A DNA stretch of 64,000 nt from Candidatus Komeilibacteria bacterium (GTDB lineage: Bacteria > Patescibacteriota > Patescibacteriia > UBA1558): NCBI GenBank assembly GCA_048538275.1, contig JBLYPW010000001.1, forward strand, positions 38,244 through 102,243, given 5' to 3'. The position numbers and the translations under genes were made by a program. Numbering within the stretch: the stretch's first letter is position 1; every line of letters starts with the position of its first letter. Of the stretch, positions 5,789 to 35,310 are shown piece after piece. Under the pieces are notes generated by a model that saw only the letters and a program-made list of their open reading frames with translations, had not been told where the DNA came from and made no database searches.

Positions 5789-6637
5789 TCAATTGATTTC
5801 AACTAGGGCACGTAAAAGCTCAATTTTGTGGGCTTGAGCATTATTTGCATCTATTTCTAAATATATAGCGTGAGCTTCGGCTTGACCCCTTTCTGGTATT
5901 TGAAAAATTAACTTACCATTGTTAATAAAACGGTCTAAAATGATATCCTTGTCTATACCTAGGACTGATTGATAGGCGCCGGTCATACCAATGTCGGTGA
6001 TATAGGCAGTCCCATTGGGCATAATCTGAGCATCGGCGGTAGGGATGTGAGTATGAGTGCCATAAACAGCACTAGCGCGCCCGTCTAGATGCCAGCCCAT
6101 GGCTCTTTTTTCGCTACTGATCTCAGCATGAAAATCTACTATGATTATATCTGCTTGTCCACCGATTTTAGGATCGGCTAATAATTCGTCCACGGCGGTA
6201 AAAGGCGATTGGCTATTAGTTTGTCCGTCATTGCTTTTAGGGTCAATAGCTTTAATATTTACATCTCCTAAAAGGTTTATCACCAACAATTGTTTATCTC
6301 TTATGGTATGGAAGCAATAGCCATCACCTGGTTTGGTTAGAGGATTATTGTGAGGTGTGATTAAGTGAATGTCTGGCATTTTTCCCAAGGTGTGTGTGTC
6401 AGCATTGCGCCAGCTGTGGTTACCACCGGTCATTATATTGATACCAAGATCATGCATCTCTTGTATTGTTTTGGCAGTCACACCGCGACCATGAGCTAAG
6501 TTTTCAACATTAGCGATCCATAAATCAGGCTGGTATTTTTTTTCCCAGATGGGCATAATTTGAGCAACGGCGCGTCGGCCAATTTTACCCATAATATCCC
6601 CCCAAGCAATAATTTTTATAACATTGTTTTTAGGCAT
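5789..6637 (-). CDS. ymdB: YmdB-like metallophosphoesterase (2',3'-cyclic-nucleotide phosphodiesterase family)
   Basis: IAWGDIMGKIGRRAV...LWIANVENLAHGRG...GGNHSW motifs. It sits immediately downstream of rny, as in the Firmicutes rny-ymdB operon. Confidence 0.7.
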   Translation of the reverse strand: MPKNNVIKIIAWGDIMGKIGRRAVAQIMPIWEKKYQPDLWIANVENLAHGRGVTAKTIQEMHDLGINIMTGGNHSWRNADTHTLGKMPDIHLITPHNNPLTKPGDGYCFHTIRDKQLLVINLLGDVNIKAIDPKSNDGQTNSQSPFTAVDELLADPKIGGQADIIIVDFHAEISSEKRAMGWHLDGRASAVYGTHTHIPTADAQIMPNGTAYITDIGMTGAYQSVLGIDKDIILDRFINNGKLIFQIPERGQAEAHAIYLEIDANNAQAHKIELLRALVEIN

Positions 6638-8169: not shown

Positions 8170-8436
8170 ATTAGTGCCTTTCTAGACTGGCTAAAAAGGG
8201 ATCTGACAGATAAAAGTAGAGACAAAAATCATTACCACCTTTATGTGGTGGACTTTAGTTTAATTTGATAATTTGTCTGTTTATGAAGGTTTATAGTAGT
8301 TGAAGTTAATTTGTTTCTGGCAAAAGAATCAATGCTGACCATAAACTAATATTGATTGTCAGTCCTTTTTCCCGGTTTTATTTATTTAAGAAGTGATTCA
8401 AGCATAACATAAAGATCTTATAAAATCAAGTAAATA

Positions 8437-23536: not shown

Positions 23537-24571
23537 ATGGAAGAAAAAGAAGAAAAAAATAGAGTGGTTTCCGGATTATCGCAAGGCAGCGATAAGGTTT
23601 TGGATTTGACTTTGCGGCCGCAAACACTAGATGAATTTATTGGTCAGGATAAGATTAAAGAAAGTTTGACTATTTTTATGGCAGCGGCGCAACAACGCAA
23701 AGAACCGATTGAGCATGTGCTCTTGTATGGCGCGCCGGGGCTGGGCAAGACCACTTTGGCGCATATTATTGCCCGATACATGGGGGTGAATATTAAAGTT
23801 ACTTCCGGGCCGGCGGTGGAAAAGGCCGGTGACTTAGCGGCTATTCTGACCAATTTGGAAGAGGGTGATATTTTGTTTATTGATGAAATTCATCGTTTGA
23901 ATAAATTGATTGAAGAAGTGCTTTATCCAGCTATGGAAGACTATGCCCTGGATATCATTATCGGCAAGGGACCATCGGCGCGAACCTTGCGGCTGGATTT
24001 ACCTAAGTTTACTATTTTGGGAGCTACCACTCGTTATAATTTATTGTCTTCACCCCTACGGGACCGTTTTGGCTCTACTTTTCATTTGCATTATTATGAG
24101 CCGGATAATATTGAAGCTATTATCAGGCGTTCGGCCGGTATCCTACAAGTAGAGATTGATGCGGCGGCCTCCCAACTTATTGCTTCGCGGGCTCGTTTGA
24201 CTCCACGGGTAGCTAATCGTTTATTGAAGCGAGTGCGTGATTATGCGCAAGTCAAAGCCGATGGTAAAATTACGGCTGACTTAGCGGAAAAAGCTTTGAC
24301 TATGTTAGAAATAGACAAGGCCGGTTTGGACGCCATTGACCGACGCATTATGCAGGCGATCATAGAAAAGTTCAACGGTGGTCCGGTAGGGGTAAACGCT
24401 ATCGCAGCAGCTACTAATGAAGAAGTGGGCACCGTAGAAGAAATATACGAGCCTTATCTGATGCAGCTGGGTCTACTGCAGCGCACGCCACGAGGCCGGG
24501 TGGTGACTGCTTTGGGATATAAACATTTGGATTTGGATCCGCCCGTAGATTTGCAGCAAAAGTTGATGTAA
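23537..24571 (+). CDS. ruvB: Holliday junction branch-migration ATPase RuvB
   Basis: [12 protein letters not shown], Walker [16 protein letters not shown], and a winged-helix C-terminus. The start is placed at the internal ATG (MEEKEE...) of the longer track ORF. Confidence 0.9.
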
Positions 24572-24620
24572 AATTATTAGCAACAAAAAACAGCTCTGTC
24601 TAGAGTCTGTTTTTTTATGA

Positions 24621-25586
24621 TTAACCGCGTGCTAGCAAGAAAATAATATAGCCAAGATAAATAAATACCAGGGCGAAGCCTTGCCAGCGTTCCAATTCTC
24701 TTTTTTTACCAATTGCCAAGAAAACAAACAGTACTACTGATAGACCAATTAAATAAACAATATCAAGCCATAATAAATTGGGTACACGTAATGGTTGTAT
24801 GATACTAGCAATACCGAGAATTAATAAAATATTAAAAATATTAGAGCCGACAATATTGCCAATCGCCATGTCCAAGTTGCGCTTGAAGGCAGCTACTAAA
24901 GAAGTTACTAATTCGGGTAAAGAAGTGCCTATCGCAATAATGGTGGCGGAAATAACAAATTCACTAAGACCAAAAACATGGGCGATAGCTACGGCGCCAT
25001 TGACCACCCACTGGCCACCATAGTAAAGACCAATCAGTCCTATTATTATCATGAGAGCTATTTTGGCATTATTGTGGGTGATATCCGTTTCATCATCTAG
25101 GTGCATACGCCGGTGGCGCACAAAAACTCCGACCGTATAAGCGACGAACAATACAAAGAAAATTAGTAAAATGATACCATCTACTCTATTTATGCTAGAG
25201 TTGAGGACATTATTGAAAAAACTATCGCTGCTGATTAGCAATAAAATCAAAGCCGCCACCATGCTATAAGGTATTTCACGCCAGATAGTAGAGTGCCGCA
25301 CTGACAGGGGATAAACTATGGCGGTAAATCCTAGCACTAAGGCAATATTGGAAATATTACTACCAATCACAGTGCCTAGGCCAATGTCGCTGGAACCACG
25401 CAGGACAGCTAAAATGTTTACGATTAATTCTGGTAAAGAAGTGCCAAAAGAAATAATGGTTAAGCCGATGATGATGTCGGGAATGTGTAATTTTTTTGCC
25501 AAGGAAGAAGCGCCGTCCACTAGCAAATCCGCTCCCTTGATCAGGAAAATAAAGCCGATAATAAATAATATATAAGTAAGAGTCAT
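24621..25586 (-). CDS. Ca2+/cation antiporter (CaCA, YrbG-like)
   Basis: Two alpha-repeat GTSLPEL motifs (GTSLPELIVNILA / GTSLPELVTSLVA) in an ~10-TM protein. Confidence 0.75.
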   Translation of the reverse strand: MTLTYILFIIGFIFLIKGADLLVDGASSLAKKLHIPDIIIGLTIISFGTSLPELIVNILAVLRGSSDIGLGTVIGSNISNIALVLGFTAIVYPLSVRHSTIWREIPYSMVAALILLLISSDSFFNNVLNSSINRVDGIILLIFFVLFVAYTVGVFVRHRRMHLDDETDITHNNAKIALMIIIGLIGLYYGGQWVVNGAVAIAHVFGLSEFVISATIIAIGTSLPELVTSLVAAFKRNLDMAIGNIVGSNIFNILLILGIASIIQPLRVPNLLWLDIVYLIGLSVVLFVFLAIGKKRELERWQGFALVFIYLGYIIFLLARG

Positions 25587-25981
25587 TATTCTGTTTTGAG
25601 CGTGCCAATAAAGAAATTTTTTAGATTTTCGCGAGCACGATCAGAATGTGGCGTGCCTGAGCCCATTGGTCTGGTTTCAAACAACTCGGTAGCATCTTTA
25701 CCGCAGCCTTGTAGAATGGCTTGGCCACCGGGATGGCGCGATATAAAGGAAGTAATCTCATAGACACTGCCCTGAATAGCCAGCCAACAATCCTTAGCCG
25801 TATTATGTTGTGCCACGTCGGTCAGGCTAAATTCTGGCGCTATGGTAGCAGGCGTGGTATTGTTGGTGTTTGATTTGATAGTATTGCTGTTGTTTGAAGT
25901 GGCTGTATTGCCACAGGCGCTAAGTAGTAGCATAATAGCTAGTAAAGCCACCAAGCCCTTTAAATTATTAAAATTTTTCAT
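25586..25981 (-). CDS. lipoprotein with cytochrome b5-like heme/steroid-binding domain
   Basis: Lipobox LLLSACGN. The segment HNTAKDCWLAIQGSVYEITSFISRHPGG fits the cyt-b5 family motif. Confidence 0.55.
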   Translation of the reverse strand: MKNFNNLKGLVALLAIMLLLSACGNTATSNNSNTIKSNTNNTTPATIAPEFSLTDVAQHNTAKDCWLAIQGSVYEITSFISRHPGGQAILQGCGKDATELFETRPMGSGTPHSDRARENLKNFFIGTLKTE

Positions 25982-26263
25982 AAAAATAATAAATAGTTCG
26001 TTAGGTTATATAATTGCCAAATATATATAATTATAACTAATAGTCTTGTTTTAGTATAGTTTTTATCCCATGATAAACAAATATACAGTTTCAATTTAGA
26101 TAAATAGGCTTATTGGCGAAAGACTTGCGTTATGATAAAATAGTATTGTCTCTAGTTTGTTTGTGTTCATTGATAGATTGTCGTAAAACTCCTAGCACTA
26201 GGAGATACTAATAGTTATATGGTTTTTTATTATCTTTTTTTGGCTAGTATCCAAAATAAAAAA

Positions 26264-26272
26264 TGATATAAT
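26264..26272 (+). promoter_or_regulatory. extended -10 promoter element (TGaTATAAT) upstream of the RT operon
   Basis: tgatataat at 26264-26272 in an A/T-rich UP-like context. The predicted TSS is just before the IR-flanked CATGCC-repeat leader. Confidence 0.4.
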
Positions 26273-26280
26273 TTTAATGC

Positions 26281-26361
26281 TTAATAACGCAATCCGTGCC
26301 ACGCCATGACATGCCATACTGCGTATGCCATGCCCTACCATGCCACACATTACGTTATTAA
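26281..26361 (+). ncRNA. candidate structured 5' leader/ncRNA of the RT operon: 13-bp inverted repeats flanking a CATGCC repeat core
   Basis: ttaataacgcaat (26281-26293) is the reverse complement of attacgttattaa (26349-26361) with one mismatch. Between them lies ccgtgccacgccatgacatgccatactgcgtatgccatgccctaccatgccac, carrying four (C)CATGCC repeats. It ends 54 nt before the RT start. Confidence 0.35.
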
Positions 26362-26414
26362 CCATTTCATTCACAATTGGCCGCTAGGCGCAATTGTCTT
26401 ACGACAATTTATCT

Positions 26415-27617
26415 ATGAAAGACCCGATTTATGAAGAGATAGTTTCCACCACAAATTTAGCTGAGGCTTATTTTGAGATAGGTGAGAAATTTATATTGGA
26501 AGGGAAGTCTGGTTATAGCGGTTTGGATGGTTTGCAGATACAAGAATTTGATACTAATTTAGAAAAGAATTTACAAGAAATTCGTGCAGATTTGATAACA
26601 TTGGCACCGCTCATGCCTTTAAATTGCAGCCAAATTCCTAAAAAAAATGGAAAACTGCGAGATATATATATTTTATCTTTGCATGATAGGATCAAATCTC
26701 AGGCAATAATCAGAGTGCTAGAACCATTATTAGAAAAGGTTTATTCACCTTTTCTTTTTTCGTATAGGTCTACGCACCCTACACATCTAGCGGCTCGTTC
26801 AGCAGTGCGCCGTTATCATCGGTATTTTGGGAAAGATTATATTTTATTGACGGATGTTGAGAAATATTTTGATAATATTGATAAAAAAATTATCATTAAT
26901 AAATTAGAGAAATTTGGCTTGCAGTCAGCTACCTTGAGTTTAATTCAATTGTTTCTGGATCAGAAGATTTTAAGGAATAATAAGTTGCTTTCGTTAGATA
27001 GAGGCTTAATGCAAGGCGTTCCTTTGGCGGTGTCATTAGCTAATTTCTATCTCAATGAAATTGATTGGTTAATTGGCAAAAAAGTGTCTTTTTATAGGCG
27101 AGTTAGTGATGATATTTTAATTATGGATAAAAGCGAGCATAAAGTTCTGGAAATTTATGATTTGTTACAGATTGAGTTAGATAAATTGGGTCTAAATATG
27201 CACCCGACAAAAACCAAATTAATGAAAAATAGCGAATTGTTTGAGTATTTAGGGTATTTATTTCATAATAATAAAGTGGCCATCGCTACTCGGAGCCAAG
27301 AAAAGTTAATTGCCAAGTTGGAAGCAGAACTACATTATTATCCCATTGCGCTAGACAAAAAAATTGAACGATTAAGGCAAAAAATATTTACCGGCGCAGA
27401 TTCTATTTCAGCTTACCTGCAAAATACTATTCGTCATTATAGGTTTGTAGATGATTATGATCAGATAAAGGAAGTTTCAGAGAAAATTTATCATATATTA
27501 ACTAGGTATTTTTTTAAAACTTATACGGCGCGTCATCGTCGGCGGACAAAAAATATTTGTCGTGATTTGGGCATGCCATCATTTTATAAGATGTTCGTAA
27601 AATATCATCATGAATAA
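26415..27617 (+). CDS. stand-alone reverse transcriptase (group-II/retron-like RT motifs, no maturase/endonuclease domains)
   Basis: RT motifs read off the translation: IPKKNGKLRDIYILS (motifs 1/2), SYRSTHPTHLA, LLTDVEKYFDNIDKKII (motif 3), RGLMQGVPLAVSLANFYLNEID (motif 4, QGxxxS..LaN type) and FYRRVSDDILIM (motif 5, catalytic xSDD). The track ORF begins at a TTG; the first ATG is at 26415. Confidence 0.75.
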   Translation: MKDPIYEEIVSTTNLAEAYFEIGEKFILEGKSGYSGLDGLQIQEFDTNLEKNLQEIRADLITLAPLMPLNCSQIPKKNGKLRDIYILSLHDRIKSQAIIRVLEPLLEKVYSPFLFSYRSTHPTHLAARSAVRRYHRYFGKDYILLTDVEKYFDNIDKKIIINKLEKFGLQSATLSLIQLFLDQKILRNNKLLSLDRGLMQGVPLAVSLANFYLNEIDWLIGKKVSFYRRVSDDILIMDKSEHKVLEIYDLLQIELDKLGLNMHPTKTKLMKNSELFEYLGYLFHNNKVAIATRSQEKLIAKLEAELHYYPIALDKKIERLRQKIFTGADSISAYLQNTIRHYRFVDDYDQIKEVSEKIYHILTRYFFKTYTARHRRRTKNICRDLGMPSFYKMFVKYHHE

Positions 27618-29310
27618 TTTACATAACATCGTGAACTTATATACTAAAAGACAAAAGCAAAAACAGGACTTTGGTTATTTTGGTTGGCAAAATTATCACC
27701 GGGAGTATTTGTTGGGTTTTTGGAAGGCGCAAAAGCAACAAATTCTTAGAGTCGGGTGGTTAAGTTTGGCGGCTATTGTTATAGAAGTGACAATTTTTTT
27801 TCTGGCCCGGGTGGTCATTAGAAATTTATCATTGCAATTGAGCATTATAAGCCTATGGTATGTGGCGGCGTTTTTGGTAGTGGCGGTGATAATTTATTTA
27901 TTACTTAGTTATTTCAGTATTTTTTATCAAAAGAGACTTTTGGTTGATTTATTAAATGATTTAAGAAAGTTATGGTTTAAGATTGTTTTACGACGACCAA
28001 TATTGGCGTCGGATAGAGAGGAAAAAGATAATGCGATTGCCAAAGTATCTTATCATTTTTCTTTGCTAAGCATGGGTTTTAATAGTGCCTTAGTGGGAAC
28101 GTGGCAAGCTATTTTAATTGTCATGGTGTTGTTATTATTATCCGCTTTTGTTAGCTGGACAATGTTTATATGGAGTATAATAATTATTATTTTTGCTGTA
28201 ATTTTTGCTATCGTCGCTTATAAAATAGCTTTTATTTATGTGAGTAGAGAGCAGACATTTTATACTCAGATTATCAAACATATGTTGAAAGTTTTTTATG
28301 ACTTGGAAAATCATCAGCTACATAACCGCGAGGCAATGGCTTTGCAGAGGTTGAATAAGTTGGTAGAGCTTGATAGTTGGTTTCGGGTGCGTAGAGATAT
28401 TTGGATGAAATTTGGCGCTGATATATTATTTGTTTTGATATTGTTGGGCGGGGCAATTTTGTATATTGTTCAGCTTTATTGGCCACATATTTTTAGGCAG
28501 GAAGCGGCCAGTTTATTTTTATATGGTGTTATAGCAACGTATAGCGTGCGTTTATTTTATCTGAGTTTGCGGGCTGGTCTTTTTTATGTGCCATTGCGTT
28601 TGGGTTTGTGGTTGTCAATACCAGAAAAAAAGCCGGCAAAAATAAGAATTGTAGAAGAAATAAAAAAAATATGTTTTCGTTCGGATAAGTTTAGGTTATT
28701 TGATGAGGATAAATATTTTTGCAATCAGTTTTGTTTTCAACAAGGTCAAAGCTATTTAATCGTTGATAAAAATAGAGACCGTTTGGATGCCTTGGCACGG
28801 ATTTTTGCTGGCATGGCCTTGTCTAGGGCCAAGCCATGGATTTTGTCGGTTAATGGGCAACGTTATTTATATAAGGATTATTTTAAATATCACACACCAA
28901 ATTATTTGATTTCCGCGAACTGGCGATTTCAGGGCACGGTGGGAGATTTTTTATTACCTCAGGCAGAAGATAGTATTTCGCCTAGTGCAGTGACAAAGAT
29001 ATATGAACAATTGGCGCCATATAATGCGTGGCATTTTTTGTTTAAAAAAAACAAGGTCTTGGCTCAAAAAATAGATTTTGTTGCTTCTTCTATTGAGCAA
29101 AGAGCTTTATTACAAATTGCCTACGCCATCATTCACCAAGTGAATTTTGTTATTATTGATAGTAGTTTGGTTGATTTGCAAGGCAAGCAATTTGTAGCGG
29201 CGATACGATTGTTGCGACAGAAAGTAGCCAAATGTATTATTATAATATTATCAACGGCTGATAACGCCATTTTAGATTATGAAGAAAAGTTCTCACTTAA
29301 AGAAAAATAG
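27610..29310 (+). CDS. ABC exporter-like half-transporter (TMD+NBD) with a catalytically degenerate NBD
   Basis: Six N-terminal TM helices, then an NBD-like region that is colinear with ABC domains. Walker A is replaced (LIVDKNRDRLDAL instead of GxSGSGKST). The signature is degenerate (ASSIEQRALLQIAYAI vs LSGGQRQR). Walker B/catalytic Glu is lost (VIIDSSL vs LLDEATS). The start overlaps the RT stop by 8 nt. Confidence 0.55.
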   Translation: MNNLHNIVNLYTKRQKQKQDFGYFGWQNYHREYLLGFWKAQKQQILRVGWLSLAAIVIEVTIFFLARVVIRNLSLQLSIISLWYVAAFLVVAVIIYLLLSYFSIFYQKRLLVDLLNDLRKLWFKIVLRRPILASDREEKDNAIAKVSYHFSLLSMGFNSALVGTWQAILIVMVLLLLSAFVSWTMFIWSIIIIIFAVIFAIVAYKIAFIYVSREQTFYTQIIKHMLKVFYDLENHQLHNREAMALQRLNKLVELDSWFRVRRDIWMKFGADILFVLILLGGAILYIVQLYWPHIFRQEAASLFLYGVIATYSVRLFYLSLRAGLFYVPLRLGLWLSIPEKKPAKIRIVEEIKKICFRSDKFRLFDEDKYFCNQFCFQQGQSYLIVDKNRDRLDALARIFAGMALSRAKPWILSVNGQRYLYKDYFKYHTPNYLISANWRFQGTVGDFLLPQAEDSISPSAVTKIYEQLAPYNAWHFLFKKNKVLAQKIDFVASSIEQRALLQIAYAIIHQVNFVIIDSSLVDLQGKQFVAAIRLLRQKVAKCIIIILSTADNAILDYEEKFSLKEK

Positions 29311-30775
29311 TTTTTTATTGTCTAGGCAAAAGAAAATTCTGGTAAAGAAATTATTTTTTGTAATTATTATTTTAGCCTGCATTATTTATATTTTACATTT
29401 GGTAGGAAATAGGGCATGGCCTTGGTTAAATGATAAAAATTATAATCCATTGATCACTAAGCGCATTAATGCGCCAATAGATTTCAATATTTTTTTCAAT
29501 GATGTGGTGGGAGACGATGTTTTGTCTAGTAGGATTATAGCTGCTATTGATAGCGCCAGATCATCTATCAAAATAGCTATGTTTGCTCTTACCTCGCCAC
29601 AAATAATCAGCGCCCTGGATAGAGCTGATAAACGCGGCGTGATTATAAAATTAGTCTATGACGAAAGCAATCGCAACCGTTATGCTGTGGCGCTGGGTAA
29701 ATTTTTTGATACTGGCATGGCTAGAGGCGCAGGAGTGGATAATCCTAAGCATAATATTGGTTATTATATGCATCATAAGTTCATTATTATTGATGAAGGG
29801 TTTGATGATGAACAATTGATTACGGGCAGTTTGAATTGGACTGATTGGCAACAACAGTATGATCCTAGTTATTTTATTATTACCAGGCGGCCAGAGATTA
29901 TCAATATTTACAATCAAGAGTTTATGCGTCTTTGGCGTGGGCAATCGGGTGTGGCCAAATTGCGAGATAATGATTATCAGCCATGGATTGGCGAGTTTAA
30001 GTATAATAATGCGACATTGGAATTGTGGTGGGGGCCAGGATTCAAAGAAAATTCTTATCGTCAAAGATTATTGGATCTTATCACTGCCGCCACGCAAAGT
30101 ATTGAAGTAGCAATTTGGCAACTGACCGATCGTGATATCGCGCAAGCACTTTTGGTCCAAGCTACGAAAGGGGTTTCGGTAGCCATCGTGACTGATGATT
30201 ATACTTTATGGTCACGAGATAGTGCATTTCCTTATTTGATTAAGCAAAAGGAGCAATTAGGCTTAGATAATTTAATAATAGCAAGTGATAGTTGGCGCTC
30301 AGTTGATCTTGATAATATTTATAAAATAGTTGGCAGGGATTTCTTTAATTCTTATTTTCATCGTCATGGTGCGCTGATAGACAATAAAATTTTAGCGCTT
30401 GGAACAGCTAATTGGTCATATAGAGGGTTCTGGAGTAATGATGAGTCTGGTTTGGTGACGGATGATTTTGATATGATTCAGGCTTGGCAGCAATCGTGGG
30501 ATTATCACTATCATAGTTTACAGGCACAAGAGCTACATTTTTTTAAAAACGAACAAGTTTTAACTTTGGGTGATAAATTTGATCAATTTTATGGAAAAAA
30601 TTTATTAGCAATTTGTGAGCTGAGCGGTGACTCGGTGAAGCCCTTGATCTTGAGTCAGACCATTTTAGCTGATTTAAATCAAAAAATTATGTTGAAGGGA
30701 GATTGTCCAAATGTGGTGCAGGTGTTTATTTATGATGACAATAATAAATTATTGGGTGCTGGTCGAGCCAATTAA
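29279..30775 (+). CDS. membrane-anchored phospholipase D (HKD) superfamily protein, two HKD-like motifs
   Basis: A single N-terminal TM helix. HKD motif 1 is HHKFIIIDEG...GSLNWT. The second motif, HRHGALIDNKILALGTANWS, is degenerate with K replaced by H. The start overlaps the preceding gene by 32 nt. Confidence 0.6.
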   Translation: MKKSSHLKKNSFLLSRQKKILVKKLFFVIIILACIIYILHLVGNRAWPWLNDKNYNPLITKRINAPIDFNIFFNDVVGDDVLSSRIIAAIDSARSSIKIAMFALTSPQIISALDRADKRGVIIKLVYDESNRNRYAVALGKFFDTGMARGAGVDNPKHNIGYYMHHKFIIIDEGFDDEQLITGSLNWTDWQQQYDPSYFIITRRPEIINIYNQEFMRLWRGQSGVAKLRDNDYQPWIGEFKYNNATLELWWGPGFKENSYRQRLLDLITAATQSIEVAIWQLTDRDIAQALLVQATKGVSVAIVTDDYTLWSRDSAFPYLIKQKEQLGLDNLIIASDSWRSVDLDNIYKIVGRDFFNSYFHRHGALIDNKILALGTANWSYRGFWSNDESGLVTDDFDMIQAWQQSWDYHYHSLQAQELHFFKNEQVLTLGDKFDQFYGKNLLAICELSGDSVKPLILSQTILADLNQKIMLKGDCPNVVQVFIYDDNNKLLGAGRAN

Positions 30776-30839
30776 TAATCAAGTTTTTTGCCAAATGTTC
30801 AAAATTGTATATAATGCCCTTGTTTAAGAATAAAATAAT

Positions 30840-31421
30840 ATGAAAAAAGCAAAATTATTATTACATGCCTGTTGCGCGCCGTGTTCCATTTATGTGGTAC
30901 AAAAATTGGCGCAGGATTATAATTTGACTATATATTATTATAATCCCAACATACATCCGGCTGGTGAATATCAAAAACGGTTACAAGAGATTATTCAATG
31001 GTCAAAAAAGGAAGGCATTGCTTTGCAAGAGGCGGATTATCGTCCGCAGGATTGGATTCAGACAATGCAGGGTCATGAATGGGATAAGGAGGGCGGCGAG
31101 CGTTGCGCTATGTGTTATGATTATCGGTTGCGACAGACGGCAGAATTTGCATCTGTTCATAATTTTCCAATATTTTCCACTACCTTAACCATTAGTCCTC
31201 ATAAAAAAGCGTCTGTTATTAATCCGATCGGACAAAAATTGGCCGAAGAATATGGTATAGATTTTTTGGCGGCTGATTGGAAAAAACAAGATGGTTTTAA
31301 AATTGCTTGTCAGCTAAGTCGCGAGGCCGGTTTTTATCGGCAAGATTATTGCGGTTGTATCTATTCTTATCGTGATAGATTATTAAAAGATAAAGCTAAA
31401 TATGAAGCTGCAGGAGTTTGA
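30840..31421 (+). CDS. queH: epoxyqueuosine reductase QueH (DUF208)
   Basis: N-terminal LLLHACCAPCS Cys cluster, a C-terminal CGC motif, and the expected size. Confidence 0.75.
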   Translation: MKKAKLLLHACCAPCSIYVVQKLAQDYNLTIYYYNPNIHPAGEYQKRLQEIIQWSKKEGIALQEADYRPQDWIQTMQGHEWDKEGGERCAMCYDYRLRQTAEFASVHNFPIFSTTLTISPHKKASVINPIGQKLAEEYGIDFLAADWKKQDGFKIACQLSREAGFYRQDYCGCIYSYRDRLLKDKAKYEAAGV

Positions 31422-32430
31422 TTATCATTTACCAGTGGAGCTGATAGCTCAGACGCCGGCGGATAAGCGTGATCATTCACGTTTATTAGTTTATAGTGCT
31501 GGACAGATTGAACATAGAAACTTTTTCAATCTCTCGGATTATTTACAAGCCGGCGACGTTTTAGTATTGAATGATAGCAAAGTATTTCCGGCGCGGCTAC
31601 TGGGTCGGCGGCAAGGTACAGGCGGTAAAGTGGAAATATTTTTATTACAAAACAAGGACCATGGCCAGTGGGAGTGTTTAGTAGGCCATGCCCGTGCTCA
31701 AGTTGGCTTGGTAGTGGATTTTGAATGTGGCTTGCATGCTACTTTACAAGCCAAGTTGGCAGATAGCTGGCTAGTACAATTTAATAAAGAGGCTGAGGAG
31801 TTAATGGAGATTATCAATAAAATTGGTGAAACTCCCTTGCCGCCTTATATTAAGACCATGGACGGTCCGCAGGTGCGCCAGCGCTATCAGACAGTATATG
31901 CTCAGCCAGTCGGCTCAGTAGCCGCGCCGACCGCTGGTTTTCATTTTACGTCAGAATTATTAAATAAATTAAAGAAACAAAACGTACAAATTGAATATGT
32001 AACTTTGCATGTTGGTTTAGGAACTTTTGCGCCGGTAAAAACAGATAGGATTGAAGATCATCAAATGCACTCGGAGTATTATGAAGTAGCTGATGAAACT
32101 TGGCATAGTATACAAAAAGCTAAAAAAGAAAATAGAAGAATTATAGCGGTGGGCACGACCGCTACTAGGGTTTTAGAATCAGTGGCTAGTTCTAATAAAC
32201 TTTCTGGCTGGACAGATATATTTATTTATCCCGGTTATAAATATAAAATAGTGGACTCATTAATAACAAACTTTCATTTACCAAAATCCACCTTATTAAT
32301 GTTAGTATCTGCTTTGTTGGATAATAGGGGGAGTGTTGATGGTATTGTTGAATTAAAAAGAATTTATCAGGAAGCTATAAATAATCATTATAGATTTTAT
32401 AGTTTTGGGGATGCAATGTTGATAATTTGA
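31402..32430 (+). CDS. queA: S-adenosylmethionine:tRNA ribosyltransferase-isomerase
   Basis: MKLQEFDYHLPVELIAQTPA... and the conserved C-terminus ...[11 protein letters not shown]. It overlaps the queH stop by 20 nt. Confidence 0.85.
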   Translation: MKLQEFDYHLPVELIAQTPADKRDHSRLLVYSAGQIEHRNFFNLSDYLQAGDVLVLNDSKVFPARLLGRRQGTGGKVEIFLLQNKDHGQWECLVGHARAQVGLVVDFECGLHATLQAKLADSWLVQFNKEAEELMEIINKIGETPLPPYIKTMDGPQVRQRYQTVYAQPVGSVAAPTAGFHFTSELLNKLKKQNVQIEYVTLHVGLGTFAPVKTDRIEDHQMHSEYYEVADETWHSIQKAKKENRRIIAVGTTATRVLESVASSNKLSGWTDIFIYPGYKYKIVDSLITNFHLPKSTLLMLVSALLDNRGSVDGIVELKRIYQEAINNHYRFYSFGDAMLII

Positions 32431-32482: not shown

Positions 32483-34411
32483 ATGAGCATGGAAAACCCA
32501 GGCTGGCTAAAAAATAAATATAATGATTTACATAGCTCTAAAGAGGTAAAAGCTGCAGTTCGTAGTGAAGAAGCACAAACAGGTGAAAAACTATCTCAAA
32601 ACCCAGAAAAGCAGATTCAAAGCTATTTAGATCGTTTAGAAAAGCTAGTCCTTGATCCAGATAAGAAGCAATCAAGGAAGATGATGGGTAAAGAACAAAG
32701 ACCAAGAGCAGTATCTTTACTACGTGAAATGGTAATGAATGAATATATTCGTCCCAATAAAGAAAAACTAGCAGAAGGAGCAGCCCGTGTAGAAGAAAGA
32801 GCAGCTAGGAATTTAGGAATGGATATTGAATATGGAGAAGAACAATTAGAACAAAGAGGAGAAATAGCTATAGAAGATTTAGAAAAATCACTAGATAATT
32901 GGATTTCTTATCTTTCAGATGCTAATGAACCATATCCAACTTGGTTTAGATATTATGCTTTTAGAAATATATTAAAGCTAGGAGATTATGATAAAGACAA
33001 AAAAGAGTTTACCAAGAGAACTAAAGGTAGTACTAAACTATTCCCCGAAATAGATAGGGGAGCCTTAGCATATATACAGCAAAATATAGAAGCTTCTAAA
33101 GATCCTAAAATACTTGCCAAGCTTCAAGAAGCACAAAAACAAGCAGCTAATGGTGATGTTCCAGAAGATCAGCTTATCACCAAAGAAAAGGTACAAAACT
33201 TTTCTAATCTTTCCTTTGCTAAGCAATATGCAGAAGGAATATCTAAAAATGGTGAAATAACCCCAGAGCTTAGAGCCATAACAGAAGGTAAATGGGTTAA
33301 GTATCAACAAGGTACAGAACCAACAGCTCTTTGGTCATCTCTACAAAACAAAGGCACAGCTTGGTGTACAAAAGGTTTTGCTACAGCCAAAACTCAACTT
33401 GAAGGTGGAGATTTTTATGTATATTACACATTAGATAAAAAAGGCAGTCCTACTATTCCTAGAATAGCTATAAGAATGCAAGGAGAGAATGTAGGAGAAG
33501 CCAGAGGAGTAGAAGACAGTGATCAGAATATGGAAGGTAATATGATAGCTATTGCCGAAGAAAAGCTAAGTACACTTCCAGGAGCTGAAAGCTATAAAGA
33601 AAAAACAGCTGACATGAAAATGCTTACTAGTATATATAACAGACATAAGCAAGGAGAAGAACTTATAAAAGAAGACCTTATCTTTTTATATGAAATAGAT
33701 AAACCTATTCAAGGCTTTGGTTATAAAAAAGATCCGAGAATAGAAGAAATACGAGACAAAAGAGATGTAACCAAAGATGCATCAATTGTATTTGAATGCA
33801 CTCCAGATCAAATAGCTAAAAATATTAATGAAGTAAATGAAAATACAGTAGCATATATAGGGCAATGGAATATACCAGCTTTTCAAGTAATTAAAAACCA
33901 TCCCAATATTATTTACTTTTATGAATCTTTCCCAGATAAAAAGATATTCATGCAAACTCTAGAAACAGATCCTAGTATAGATTCACCTGATACAGCCAAA
34001 CAGTCTCTTAAAGATAAGAACATCTATCTTTCAGATTGGGGAAAGGATATTTTAGAAAAAACAGAGTTTAGTAAAGAAAAACAAGAATATGATTTAGTGA
34101 GATTTACAGTAGAGCAATTAGGATTTCCAAATGGTGCTACTACTGATGAAATATATAATAAAGCTCAAGAGCTCGGACTTGAATTATGTCCAGCTGAAAT
34201 TGGACCTCAATTAAGATTACAAAGTACTAGTAAGGAATGGATGCTTATTGCTATGAAACAGATTATAGACCGTGATGGCGCTCCGAAGCTGTTCGATCTG
34301 AATGATTATGGTGTTCAGCTGGCACTGGTCAGCAACGATGCAGGGTCTGACGACAGGTGGGATTCGGACGGTAGGTTTGTGTTTCATTACCGCCCCAGTA
34401 GCAAAGCGTAG
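32483..34411 (+). CDS. hypothetical 642-aa protein whose C-terminal ~44 aa form a DGR variable region (putative DGR target)
   Basis: ORF with purine-rich composition distinct from its neighbours. The last 132 nt (34261-34392) match a downstream non-coding copy, with mismatches only at positions where that copy has A. Confidence 0.6.
   Translation: MSMENPGWLKNKYNDLHSSKEVKAAVRSEEAQTGEKLSQNPEKQIQSYLDRLEKLVLDPDKKQSRKMMGKEQRPRAVSLLREMVMNEYIRPNKEKLAEGAARVEERAARNLGMDIEYGEEQLEQRGEIAIEDLEKSLDNWISYLSDANEPYPTWFRYYAFRNILKLGDYDKDKKEFTKRTKGSTKLFPEIDRGALAYIQQNIEASKDPKILAKLQEAQKQAANGDVPEDQLITKEKVQNFSNLSFAKQYAEGISKNGEITPELRAITEGKWVKYQQGTEPTALWSSLQNKGTAWCTKGFATAKTQLEGGDFYVYYTLDKKGSPTIPRIAIRMQGENVGEARGVEDSDQNMEGNMIAIAEEKLSTLPGAESYKEKTADMKMLTSIYNRHKQGEELIKEDLIFLYEIDKPIQGFGYKKDPRIEEIRDKRDVTKDASIVFECTPDQIAKNINEVNENTVAYIGQWNIPAFQVIKNHPNIIYFYESFPDKKIFMQTLETDPSIDSPDTAKQSLKDKNIYLSDWGKDILEKTEFSKEKQEYDLVRFTVEQLGFPNGATTDEIYNKAQELGLELCPAEIGPQLRLQSTSKEWMLIAMKQIIDRDGAPKLFDLNDYGVQLALVSNDAGSDDRWDSDGRFVFHYRPSSKA
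34261..34392 (+). repeat. DGR variable repeat (VR) at the 3' end of the 642-aa gene
   Basis: Aligns over 132 nt to 34846-34977. All 18 mismatches are non-A here versus A in the other copy. A GC-rich imperfect hairpin follows (ccccagtagcaaagc / gtagcttgctacgggg). Confidence 0.8.
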
Positions 34412-34496
34412 CTTGCTACGGGGCAAGCAAGTTAGAAACTTAGAAATTTTGCCTGCCTGCCGAAGCTTCGGCGTAGGCAGGATCCTTTGTTTTTTT

Positions 34497-34598
34497 AATT
34501 CTTTGATTTCTTTGATGCTTTGATACTTTGCCTGCCCCGTAGGGAGGAACGACCGTACGGGGACCCTTTGATTTCTTTGACGCTTTGATACTTTGAGT
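34497..34598 (+). repeat. two copies of a ~32-bp unit built from CTTTGAT(T) iterons, each followed by a GC-rich hairpin
   Basis: ctttgatttctttgatgctttgatactttg (34497-34526) and ctttgatttctttgacgctttgatactttg (34566-34595). Adjacent hairpins: cctgcctgccgaagc/gcttcggcgtaggcagg and ccccgtaggg...ccgtacgggg. Confidence 0.5.
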
Positions 34599-34845
34599 CG
34601 CTACATTTTTTTGGTATAATTAATTTAGTTTGGTCTATCAGGTGGTCATGGCTTTCTGAAACCTTTCTAACGAACATAAATCGAGAATGTAAGCGGTTAA
34701 GATTTCTTGCAGAGTGATTTGTGTATCGTTTCCAAAAGAAATTAACTTGGTGTGCATTGCTGGAGGATTTTAGATCCCAAATAAAATACAGTCCATAGTC
34801 TTTTTAATAAATTACTTGGACAGTGATATAGATGGCACTGCACAT

Positions 34846-34977
34846 ATTATAGACCGTAATGGCGATCCGAAACTGTTCAATCTGAATGATAATGGTGATC
34901 AGCTGGAACTGAACAGCAACAATGCAAGGTCTGACAACAGGTGGAATTCGAACAATAGGTTTGTGTTTCATTACCGC
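34846..34977 (+). repeat. DGR template repeat (TR), non-coding
   Basis: A copy of the VR with A at all 18 variable positions (many AAT/AAC codons). No in-frame start codon upstream; a TAG stop lies in frame at 34771-34773. A hairpin ccgtag(ctactatagt)ctacgg follows. Confidence 0.8.
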
Positions 34978-35184: not shown

Positions 35185-35310
35185 TTATCTGCTTTTTTAG
35201 AAAATAAAGACAGTAATGATGGAATTCTAGAATTAAAAAAAATTTATCAAGAGGCGATTGAACAACAATATAGATTCTATAGCTTTGGTGACGCGATGTT
35301 GATTTTATAG
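35185..35310 (+). pseudogene. duplicated, diverged 3'-terminal fragment of queA (last ~41 codons)
   Basis: Encodes [41 protein letters not shown], matching the queA C-terminus [41 protein letters not shown]. By eye the nucleotide identity is about 78%. There is no upstream queA body. Confidence 0.7.

Follow-up and report, generated by a model that had tools for sequence, protein, structure and literature searches.

A structured RNA, a stand-alone reverse transcriptase and two membrane proteins form an accessory cassette in Patescibacteria

In a stretch of 64,000 nucleotides (the window) from a metagenome-assembled genome of Candidatus Komeilibacteria (Patescibacteria), we analyzed an accessory cassette that consists of a structured non-coding RNA (ncRNA), a stand-alone reverse transcriptase (RT), a homologue of ATP-binding cassette (ABC) exporters (gene 2), and a membrane-anchored protein of the phospholipase D (PLD) superfamily (gene 3). 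By analogy with characterized systems, the cassette may be a new RT–ncRNA system of the DRT/retron kind with a membrane effector pair, a reading to which we give about an even chance; a role in defense is what we infer for it. This interpretation was ranked first because an ncRNA beside a domain-less RT, enzymatic and membrane partners, and an accessory, paralogue-rich distribution make up the signature of the retron and DRT conflict systems.

Results

Composition and conservation of the cassette

A preliminary description of the locus listed three genes and overlooked the ncRNA; the cassette has four parts and not three. These are as follows:

26173–26413, forward strand: structured ncRNA, the fourth component, about 240 nt, a four-way junction closed by helix P1, abutting the RT start codon (covariance model, fold, and covariation)
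26415–27617, forward strand: RT, 400 aa, with group-II-intron-like fingers, palm, and thumb; catalytic box V-S-D-D (V-G-D-D in the family)
27610–29310, forward strand: ABC-exporter-fold half-transporter homologue, 566 aa, with a transmembrane domain (TMD) and a nucleotide-binding domain (NBD); it lacks the catalytic Glu and the H-loop His, has a degenerate signature and, in the window copy, also lacks Walker A
29279–30775, forward strand: membrane-anchored tandem PLD-superfamily protein, 498 aa, with a single transmembrane (TM) segment of predicted N-in orientation and two Nuc/Zucchini-like domains, HxK...D and HxH...D

The open reading frame (ORF) listing reproduced the three same-strand genes of the preliminary description, with an 8-nt overlap between the RT gene and gene 2 and a 32-nt overlap between genes 2 and 3. 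Through these overlapping stops and starts, the RT gene is translationally coupled to gene 2, and gene 2 to gene 3. The ORF call allowed the RT to start at TTG 26394 or ATG 26415, with the stop at 27617. The ATG start yields 400 aa, 100% identical to the NCBI protein P0001 from a 487-kb contig, and the TTG falls within an ncRNA helix. Since the 3′ strand of the closing helix P1 stops 5 nt before ATG 26415, the true start is this ATG and not TTG 26394.

Scanning one genome per species, we collected 77 loci, nearly all from Patescibacteria and spread over several classes. The RT, gene 2, and gene 3 were adjacent in all 77 genome loci with enough sequence, which bears out the proposal of a conserved RT-centered module. 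The stop/start overlap between the cassette genes was nearly universal. In four loci, the gene 2–gene 3 pair lies on the strand opposite to the RT and is still adjacent to it; the linkage is therefore not merely that of an inherited operon.

The flanking genes vary by locus. Among these heterogeneous neighbors are cupredoxins, pilins, sigma factors, and housekeeping enzymes, as well as a small number of genes of the Fic/AAA type. Two loci with an RT 68% identical to that of the window (L078 and L079) have the same flanks as the window, with cytochrome b5 upstream and QueH–QueA downstream. An empty site was found at 8395–8477 of L083 (FLOH01000674.1), where the order is RuvB–CaCA–QueH–QueA and only 82 nt separate CaCA from QueH. 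At this position, the window carries 5.25 kb (25587–30839) with cytochrome b5, the ncRNA, the RT, gene 2, and gene 3, all absent from L083. The relatedness of L083 to the window (RuvB 77%, QueA 65% identity) is comparable to that of L078 and L079. A related contig with the same flanks and without the cassette supports the accessory nature that had been proposed.

Six genomes carry two or three cassettes, with RT identities within a genome of 37–62%. One locus (L081, 6001–10350) is in pieces: an RT of 362 aa, the ABC-like protein as 42 + 398 + 186 aa, and the PLD as 118 + 142 + 223 aa. This may reflect decay of the copy or an artefact of assembly or frameshifting; the ncRNA of this locus is still detectable at 50.7 bits. 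One RT subfamily (L013, L023, L025, L028–L031, L058, L074) has a recurrent context of its own, with giant repeat-rich surface proteins (~980 aa) flanking the cassette and a 197-aa membrane protein directly 3′ of gene 3 (14 loci), followed by one or two cupredoxin-like proteins. This context could be lineage synteny or an extended functional neighborhood. The 2.9 million viral contigs of IMG/VR held one cassette locus only, and 50,697 phage records gave only remote RT matches; a phage origin was rejected in view of this near-absence from viral collections.

A structured ncRNA precedes the RT

Nearly all loci have 250–500 nt of non-coding DNA 5′ of the RT, whatever the upstream gene, and these regions share sequence blocks with evident compensatory changes. 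RNAalifold was applied to a 13-sequence MAFFT alignment of one subfamily and predicted a closing helix, several hairpins, and a 3′ hairpin. The fraction of paired cells was 92.7%, as compared with 82% in shuffles and 37–48% with slid partners. Two-sided changes were found in 28 pairs (15.2 ± 2.0 in shuffles), and 0 of 500 shuffles scored as well as the alignment.

A covariance model (CM), R1, was built from 11 homologous loci of one subfamily, with the window excluded. It matched the window at 26173–26413 (59.4 bits, E = 1e-8), its sole significant match in the 64 kb. Full-length matches were obtained in 41 related loci (3 with two copies) in addition to the window, and the window's closest relatives, L078 and L079, were detected when a smaller search space was used. 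In the resulting CM alignment of 45 rows, one of them a marginal reverse-strand match, 43 of the 44 base pairs showed double-sided changes, and 92.5% of the cells were paired, as compared with 67.9% in shuffles and ~42% with slid partners; such a model-fitted alignment is biased toward the structure, and the MAFFT-based tests agree with it. The minimum free energy fold of the window RNA alone gave the same four-way junction helices (z = -7.1), and compensatory changes were present between the window and both L078 and L080. The elements of the RNA in the window, all on the forward strand, are the following:

26176–26186 / 26399–26409: closing helix P1 (CM alignment and fold)
AA(AAC) after P1: A-rich junction with the conserved AAAAC
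26189–26204: hairpin P2 (CM alignment and fold)
26205–26210, pairing with the P5 loop at 26245–26250: pseudoknot P3 (covariation)
26213–26275: long hairpin P4/P5 (CM alignment and fold)
26281–26361: hypervariable hairpin P6, with GCCATG/CATGCC repeats
26362–26372: junction J6/7 (CM alignment and fold)
26373–26397: hairpin P7, with the conserved loop GCCGCUAGGCG

Across the family, the ncRNA measures ~170–250 nt. Outside its helices, conservation is seen in the AAAAC junction, in the loop of P5, and in the P7 loop, which reads CCGYUWRGG. In the P3 pseudoknot, the strand after P2 forms 6 bp with the loop at the tip of P5. Covariation across the subfamilies was observed for five of these six pairs, and 100% of the cells are paired. 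Homologues pair as GATATTA/TAATATC, GGCATTA/TAATGCC, GGTGTTA/TAACACC, and GATATCA/TGATATC, the window as ATACTA/TAGTAT, and L080 as ATACAA/TTGTAT. In the more divergent loci, the P3/P5 complementarity was recognized by eye only. A cross-subfamily MAFFT alignment (A4) of the 5′ RNA domain was structurally inconsistent for P4, which was judged on the subfamily and CM alignments.

An nhmmer search from the CM alignment found the ncRNA in 51 of 83 sources. Rfam cmscan of 24000–32000 at E ≤ 1 gave no match to it. A hand-written scanner for the P2/P3/P5 motifs was dropped as non-discriminating: it recognized 75 of 75 loci, but also 64–71 of the 75 shuffled controls.

Hairpin P6 differs between the window and L078, with the GCCATG repeats kept, and is absent in L080. 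P6 was rejected as a guide or target element, as it has no match elsewhere in the window. Four loci have two tandem ncRNAs before one RT (L025, 932–1500; L044, 7625–7995; L046, 7524–7996; L074, 7401–7990). Their scaffolds are near-identical and the central hairpins different. In L046, the upstream copy still has the initial bases of the RT ORF, and an intrinsic terminator follows it. In L047 (5810–8001), an intrinsic terminator comes after the ncRNA (5810–5979), and three genes for type IV pilin-like proteins lie between this terminator and the RT; from this sequence arrangement, the ncRNA would form a separate transcription unit. The terminators in L046 and L047, together with the tandem copies with different hairpins, indicate that the ncRNA is a discrete functional unit and not a mere leader. 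With a dedicated ncRNA, the system can be compared with retrons and DRTs.

The RT is related to group II intron RTs

The RT matched Pfam RVT_1 (E = 3e-28) and no other Pfam domain. Its translation contains QGVPLAVSLANFYL and YRRVSDD (family consensus YRRVGDD), in agreement with the preliminary description of a 400-aa RT with an unusual VSDD box and without fused domains. Residues D154, D239, and D240 are invariant in 43 sequences, and the RT is predicted to be catalytically intact. About 43 full-length homologues of ~400 aa were found, 31–68% identical. Below a score gap from 193 to 113 bits, the matches were ordinary group II intron RTs with a maturase domain.

Against TIGR04416 (group II RT/maturase), the RT scored 167 bits over model positions 14–351 of 353, including the thumb; the cut-off of this model is 300. 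Pfam GIIM was not detected in the RT, whereas true intron RTs carry PF08388. Motif 4 is QGxPL...N, and motif 7 is the group-II-type FLGY. Among solved structures, the family profile scored highest with GsI-IIC (135 bits), the E.r. intron RT (134), and Cas6-RT-Cas1 (124), followed by LtrA (84), 9ioa (an RT chain of unstated type, 74), Drt2 (55), G2L4 (47), and the retron Ec86 (36). The similarity to Cas6-RT-Cas1 is confined to the RT domain, and neither a Cas1 ORF nor a CRISPR array was found around the RT in the window or the loci.

UG26 (121 bits) and UG17 (111 bits) were among the best PADLOC matches. Over all 43 family members, the best were UG26 (E = 2.6e-42, RT core only) and UG17 (1.2e-33), both below the generic RT and group II models, and no member reached the family level for the UG/DRT, Abi, or retron models. 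For the RT, this profile search upholds the earlier statement that the trio is not recognizable as any described retron, DRT, Abi, or UG system. Retron RT models scored 41–50 bits, and the retron signatures NAxxH and VTG are absent from the family consensus. By sequence, the RT appears nearest to group II intron and CRISPR-associated RTs and outside the UG/DRT, retron, and DGR groups, DGR denoting diversity-generating retroelements. The preliminary description had also set it apart from group II introns and DGRs. Consistent with this, Rfam gave no match and the RT ORF is not embedded in intron domains, and a template/variable repeat (TR/VR) pair was found in 0 of the other loci searched.

Gene 2 has an ABC-exporter fold with a degenerate NBD

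Pfam gave gene 2 only a weak ABC_membrane match (E = 0.049). An AlphaFold model was calculated from a 4-sequence alignment (predicted local distance difference test score 70, moderate confidence), and Foldseek matched it over its full length to PCAT1, MsbA, TmrAB, and HlyB (E ~1e-13). A 32-sequence gene 2 profile also matched ABC exporters, with E values down to 1e-17. The fold match of the model thus supports the assignment of gene 2 as a TMD+NBD exporter homologue.

The window copy has DKNRDRLD at the Walker A position, IIDS at Walker B (Ser for Glu), and a degenerate signature. In the family, 59 of 71 sequences, those of L046 and L067 among them, retain the Lys of Walker A GxxxxGK[ST], and 69 retain the Walker B Asp; Asn takes the place of the catalytic Glu in 58, and the signature and H-loop are degenerate. 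Walker A loss is specific to the sublineage of the window and is shared by its two nearest relatives. The earlier claim that gene 2 cannot hydrolyze ATP is reasonable, but most members of the family keep an ATP-binding Walker A. As read from these residues, the NBD of most members could bind ATP but would lack what hydrolysis requires, and both ATP sites of a gene 2 homodimer would be dead. The coupling-region motifs KISYH..SMG and DSxFRxRRD are conserved, which suggests that communication between TMD and NBD still matters. A profile search of 1.84 billion representative proteins returned 85 at E ≤ 1e-30 and 180 at E ≤ 1e-3. The gene 2 family is small and sharply bounded, comparable in size to the set of RT loci.

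Gene 3 is a membrane-anchored tandem PLD protein

Gene 3 contains two Pfam PLDc_2 domains (3.6e-40), one N-terminal TM segment, and the motifs H165xK167...D172 and H361xH363...D368; the one-TM, two-HKD architecture with a K-to-H replacement in the second HKD, as first described, was recovered in full. The first motif is the canonical HxK...D...GSxN, and the second reads HxH(x)4D...GTxN. H363 is invariant in 70 of 70 homologues, and the replacement is therefore a conserved peculiarity and not decay. Each half of gene 3 resembles an enzyme of the Nuc type with a single HKD. Gene 3 scored up to 94 bits with NucT models; among solved structures, it matched Zucchini/MitoPLD (63 bits), NucT (47), and Nuc (40). 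The DISARM DrmC and Mokosh PLD models of PADLOC were matched as well. The DrmC score of 45 bits, against a cut-off of 133, is a similarity at the domain level, and no DISARM partner gene (DrmA, DrmB, or methylase) was found among the cassette neighbors.

The N-terminal flank of the TM segment has a net charge of +4.4, as compared with +1.0 on the other side. By the positive-inside rule, this strongly positive flank predicts an N-in/C-out orientation, with the catalytic domains outside the cytoplasmic membrane. Most homologues have ~400 aa; the ~90-aa C-terminal extension of the window protein occurs in ~20%.

Promoter candidates and a repeat pair downstream

The following two features concern transcription of the cassette:

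26113–26141, forward strand: candidate sigma-70-type promoter, TTGGCG–17 nt–TAAAAT preceded by TG, 5′ of the ncRNA (consensus scan; weak evidence)
26264–26272, forward strand: TGATATAAT, previously taken for an extended -10 element, within the 3′ strand of ncRNA helix P4 (CM alignment and fold)

The proposed extended -10 promoter did not stand: TGATATAAT exists at this place, but it is one strand of the conserved helix P4, so that a role as the operon promoter is unlikely. In subfamily-A loci, a -10-like box is likewise located immediately 5′ of P1. The window, L078, and L080 share the conserved segment TTTGTGTTCATTGATAG (26160–26176 in the window), immediately 5′ of P1; it could extend the RNA in the 5′ direction or be promoter/transcription start site sequence.

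A repeat pair of 136 nt, 88% identical, lies 7 kb 3′ of the RT, with a variable-like copy at 34258–34393 and a template-like copy at 34842–34977. The variable-like copy lies at the 3′ end of a 642-aa ORF (32483–34411). The copies differ at 17 positions, 16 of them at adenines of the downstream, template-like copy, a hallmark of DGRs. Between the 642-aa ORF and the template, there is a ~1-kb non-coding stretch with short direct repeats (CTTTGATTTCTTTGATGCTTTGATACTTTG and related) and GC-rich hairpins at 34432–34595, an unusual feature in a genome of such compactness. At 35221–35310, ~2.8 kb 3′ of the intact queA (31402–32430), the QueA C-terminus occurs a second time, as a leftover copy. As the 642-aa ORF and the template repeat lie between queA and this leftover 3′ end, they may be a separate insertion. 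Two RT profiles run over the 64-kb window detected no RT ORF besides that of the cassette, and a TR/VR-type pair was present in 0 of 82 other loci (81 with a family RT), searched up to 8 kb on either side of the RT.

Discussion

Interpretation and possible mechanism

Several points support the reading of the cassette as a DRT/retron-like system. The relatives of gene 3 by sequence (Zucchini/MitoPLD, NucT, and Nuc, and the DrmC and Mokosh PLD models) suggest partners of the effector type. DRT10, with ncRNA, membrane protein, and RT, would be a precedent by analogy. The accessory nature is seen in the empty site of L083, the divergent paralogues, and the apparently fragmented copy in L081. The constant synteny of the three genes, the covarying and separable ncRNA, the invariant catalytic Asp residues of the RT, and the small, sharply bounded gene 2 family also favor this reading.

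Other observations weigh against it. The cassette keeps a constant position in L078, L079, and the window despite the 68% RT identity, which speaks for stable inheritance and not for rapid turnover. No clear defense islands were found around the cassette loci, whose flanks are housekeeping or cell-surface genes. The predicted outward-facing PLD would misfit a classical cytoplasmic nuclease effector and complicates the abortive-infection idea. The closest RT relatives by sequence, group II intron RTs together with G2L4, include non-defense enzymes. Finally, Walker A has been lost in the sublineage of the window, so nucleotide binding cannot be essential for function.

Under the DRT/retron-like reading, the RT would bind its cognate ncRNA, probably through recognition of P3, P5, and P7, and would copy part of it into complementary DNA (cDNA). 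The RT–RNA(–cDNA) particle could then serve as a sensor or regulator that communicates with the cytoplasmic NBDs of the ABC-like dimer. The dimer would be a nucleotide-gated switch or conduit rather than a pump, controlling the PLD phosphodiesterase at the membrane, with the PLD as the executing enzyme. The outcome would be protection against phage or other invading DNA, through envelope or membrane damage in the infected cell or through nucleic-acid destruction at the surface. A bolder version, which we consider rather unlikely, couples the RT across the membrane: either RT–ncRNA docked on the dead NBDs activates the outward PLD, or cDNA is fed through the exporter-like protein for surface processing or display. 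FtsEX, which transmits force to extracellular hydrolases, is a model for the NBD-docking variant.

Comparison with known systems

The nearest functional precedent, by analogy, would be DRT10, a tripartite system of an ncRNA, a SLATT membrane protein, and an RT (PMC12632851), and the present name of UG17 (formerly G2L3). The cassette shares with DRT10 and with the class 2 UG systems DRT2 and DRT9 a stand-alone RT of ~400 aa without fused domains, adjoined by a dedicated structured ncRNA, and with DRT10 also a membrane-protein partner. It differs from DRT10 and the UG systems in that its RT scores far from the family level and higher with group II intron models, its ncRNA, which has no counterpart in Rfam, combines a pseudoknot with a four-way junction, and its hosts are Patescibacteria; its partners are an ABC-exporter homologue and a PLD instead of SLATT.

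Retrons (e.g., Ec48 with its two-TM effector) resemble the cassette in the long-range closing helix, the conserved 5′ part, and the variable hairpin of the RNA, as well as in the order of an RT directly downstream of the ncRNA and then effector genes, some of which encode membrane proteins. In contrast, the RT of the cassette is outside the retron clade and lacks the retron motifs, no conserved junction guanosine was seen, and the effectors are other ones. In sequence, group II intron RTs (GsI-IIC, 135 bits) and CRISPR RT-Cas1 (Cas6-RT-Cas1, 124 bits) are the closest, and motifs 4 and 7 and the aligning thumb are group-II-like. However, the catalytic box is V[G/S]DD and not YADD or YIDD as in group II RTs, there is no ribozyme RNA, endonuclease domain, or nearby Cas1, and, unlike group II RTs, G2L4, and RT-Cas1, the RT is accompanied by an ncRNA of its own and by membrane partners. 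The score of G2L4 was 47 bits only.

Gene 2 shares with the type IV ABC half-transporters PCAT1, MsbA, TmrAB, and HlyB the full-length TMD+NBD fold and the conserved coupling-helix region and, in most members, Walker A and the Walker B Asp. It differs from them in its low identity (12–17%), the replacement of Glu by Asn or Ser, the degenerate signature, and the missing H-loop His. Its family is tiny (~85–100 clusters) and, in the RT-collected loci, occurs only beside the RT. For gene 3, the closest relatives by solved structure and NCBIfam are Nuc, NucT, and Zucchini (MitoPLD), with which it shares HxK(x)4D...GSxN and, with Zucchini, the N-terminal membrane anchor. These relatives are homodimers, whereas gene 3 fuses two domains in one chain; the invariant HxH of its second motif and the predicted outward position of its catalytic domains set it apart from them and from DrmC.

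In the full-text literature, the coverage of which is incomplete so that an earlier description is possible, we found no account of the RT/ABC/PLD cassette, its RNA, or the RT clade, and no Patescibacteria-specific RT–ncRNA system. The searchable defense catalogues do not list a pairing of an anchored tandem PLD with an ABC-exporter homologue that is dead for hydrolysis. The RT lineage, the structured RNA, and the effector pair would thus be new, within the known kind of RT–ncRNA–effector systems.

Alternative explanations

A non-defense accessory function in the envelope has to be weighed against the DRT/retron-like reading. RT–ncRNA could make a nucleic acid that passes to the ABC-like protein and is then processed or displayed outside by the PLD nuclease (cDNA export or surface display), or the ABC-like protein and the PLD could scavenge host nucleic acids or phospholipids under regulation by RT–ncRNA; both versions would suit the episymbiotic, auxotrophic lifestyle of Patescibacteria. 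We regard this function as somewhat unlikely, but the outward PLD, the surface-gene neighborhoods, and the complete exporter fold keep it alive. The neighbors are enriched in pilins, giant surface proteins, cupredoxins, and MacAB-like transporters and not in defense genes, the coupling-helix motifs of gene 2 are conserved, and the genomic position is stable in the lineage of the window. In addition, enzymes of the NucT and Nuc types have extracytoplasmic roles in DNA uptake. However, gene 2 without the catalytic Glu (and, in the window, without Walker A) cannot power transport, and we know of no ABC exporter that moves DNA. A cassette that is rare and, as the empty site shows, dispensable fits a basic nutritional role poorly. 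To our knowledge, all characterized non-mobile bacterial RTs with a dedicated ncRNA and a separate effector serve defense.

The ncRNA might instead be the msr-msd of a true retron, with P1 as a1/a2, P6 as msd, and a branched msDNA that restrains the two membrane proteins. The layout is retron-like, from the closing inverted repeat, the conserved 5′ half, and the variable hairpin to the RT followed by effector genes. We consider this improbable, because the retron models reach 41–50 bits compared with 167 bits for group II, Ec86 scores only 36 bits with the family profile, NAxxH and VTG are absent, and motif 7 is the group-II-type FLGY. Moreover, the junction after P1 is the A-rich AAAAC, no conserved guanosine was seen at the retron priming place, and the variable hairpin is missing in L080. 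That the RT belongs to a mobile group II intron of decayed or unusual form or to some other retroelement, with the membrane genes as cargo or neighbors, is highly improbable. The best profile match is indeed the group II RT/maturase (positions 14–351 of 353), the best matches among solved structures are to GsI-IIC and further intron RTs, and several genomes have more than one copy. Yet the 167 bits are far under the family cut-off of 300, Rfam at E ≤ 1 detected no intron domains, the upstream RNA of ~240 nt is self-closed before the ORF, the RT stop overlaps gene 2, no terminal repeats were found, and the 2.9 million viral contigs contain one locus only. The within-genome copies, with RT identities of 37–62%, are old paralogues and not products of recent transposition. 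Equally slight is the probability that the RT serves a DGR through the repeats 7 kb downstream, in spite of the 16 of 17 mismatches at template adenines (34842–34977 versus 34258–34393) and the lack of any other RT ORF in the 64-kb window. DGR RTs carry an SQ signature in motif 4, and QGxPL...N is not of this type. In L078, the ~660 nt from the 3′ end of QueA to the contig end hold no repeat cassette but only an opposite-strand gene. We judged the repeat pair to be unrelated to the RT because no such pair occurs in the 82 other loci searched, a dedicated ncRNA accompanies the RT, and the segment between queA and the leftover queA 3′ end is perhaps a separate insertion.

Significance

The prokaryotic RT-plus-ncRNA systems, i.e., retrons, DRT2, DRT9, and DRT10, have each given unexpected biochemistry and genome-engineering tools. 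With the cassette, a new structured RNA joins them, one whose pseudoknot covaries and whose hairpin is exchangeable. The parts of the cassette are defined for direct tests, with the RNA boundaries, the catalytic residues, and natural variants with and without Walker A at hand. Should the transmembrane coupling be true, it would be a mode of action new for reverse transcriptases, and the hypervariable hairpin of the ncRNA would be a lineage-specific specificity or payload element. The hosts are nearly all Patescibacteria, ultra-small episymbionts with poorly known immunity and envelope biology, and some of their tiny genomes carry two or three copies of the cassette.

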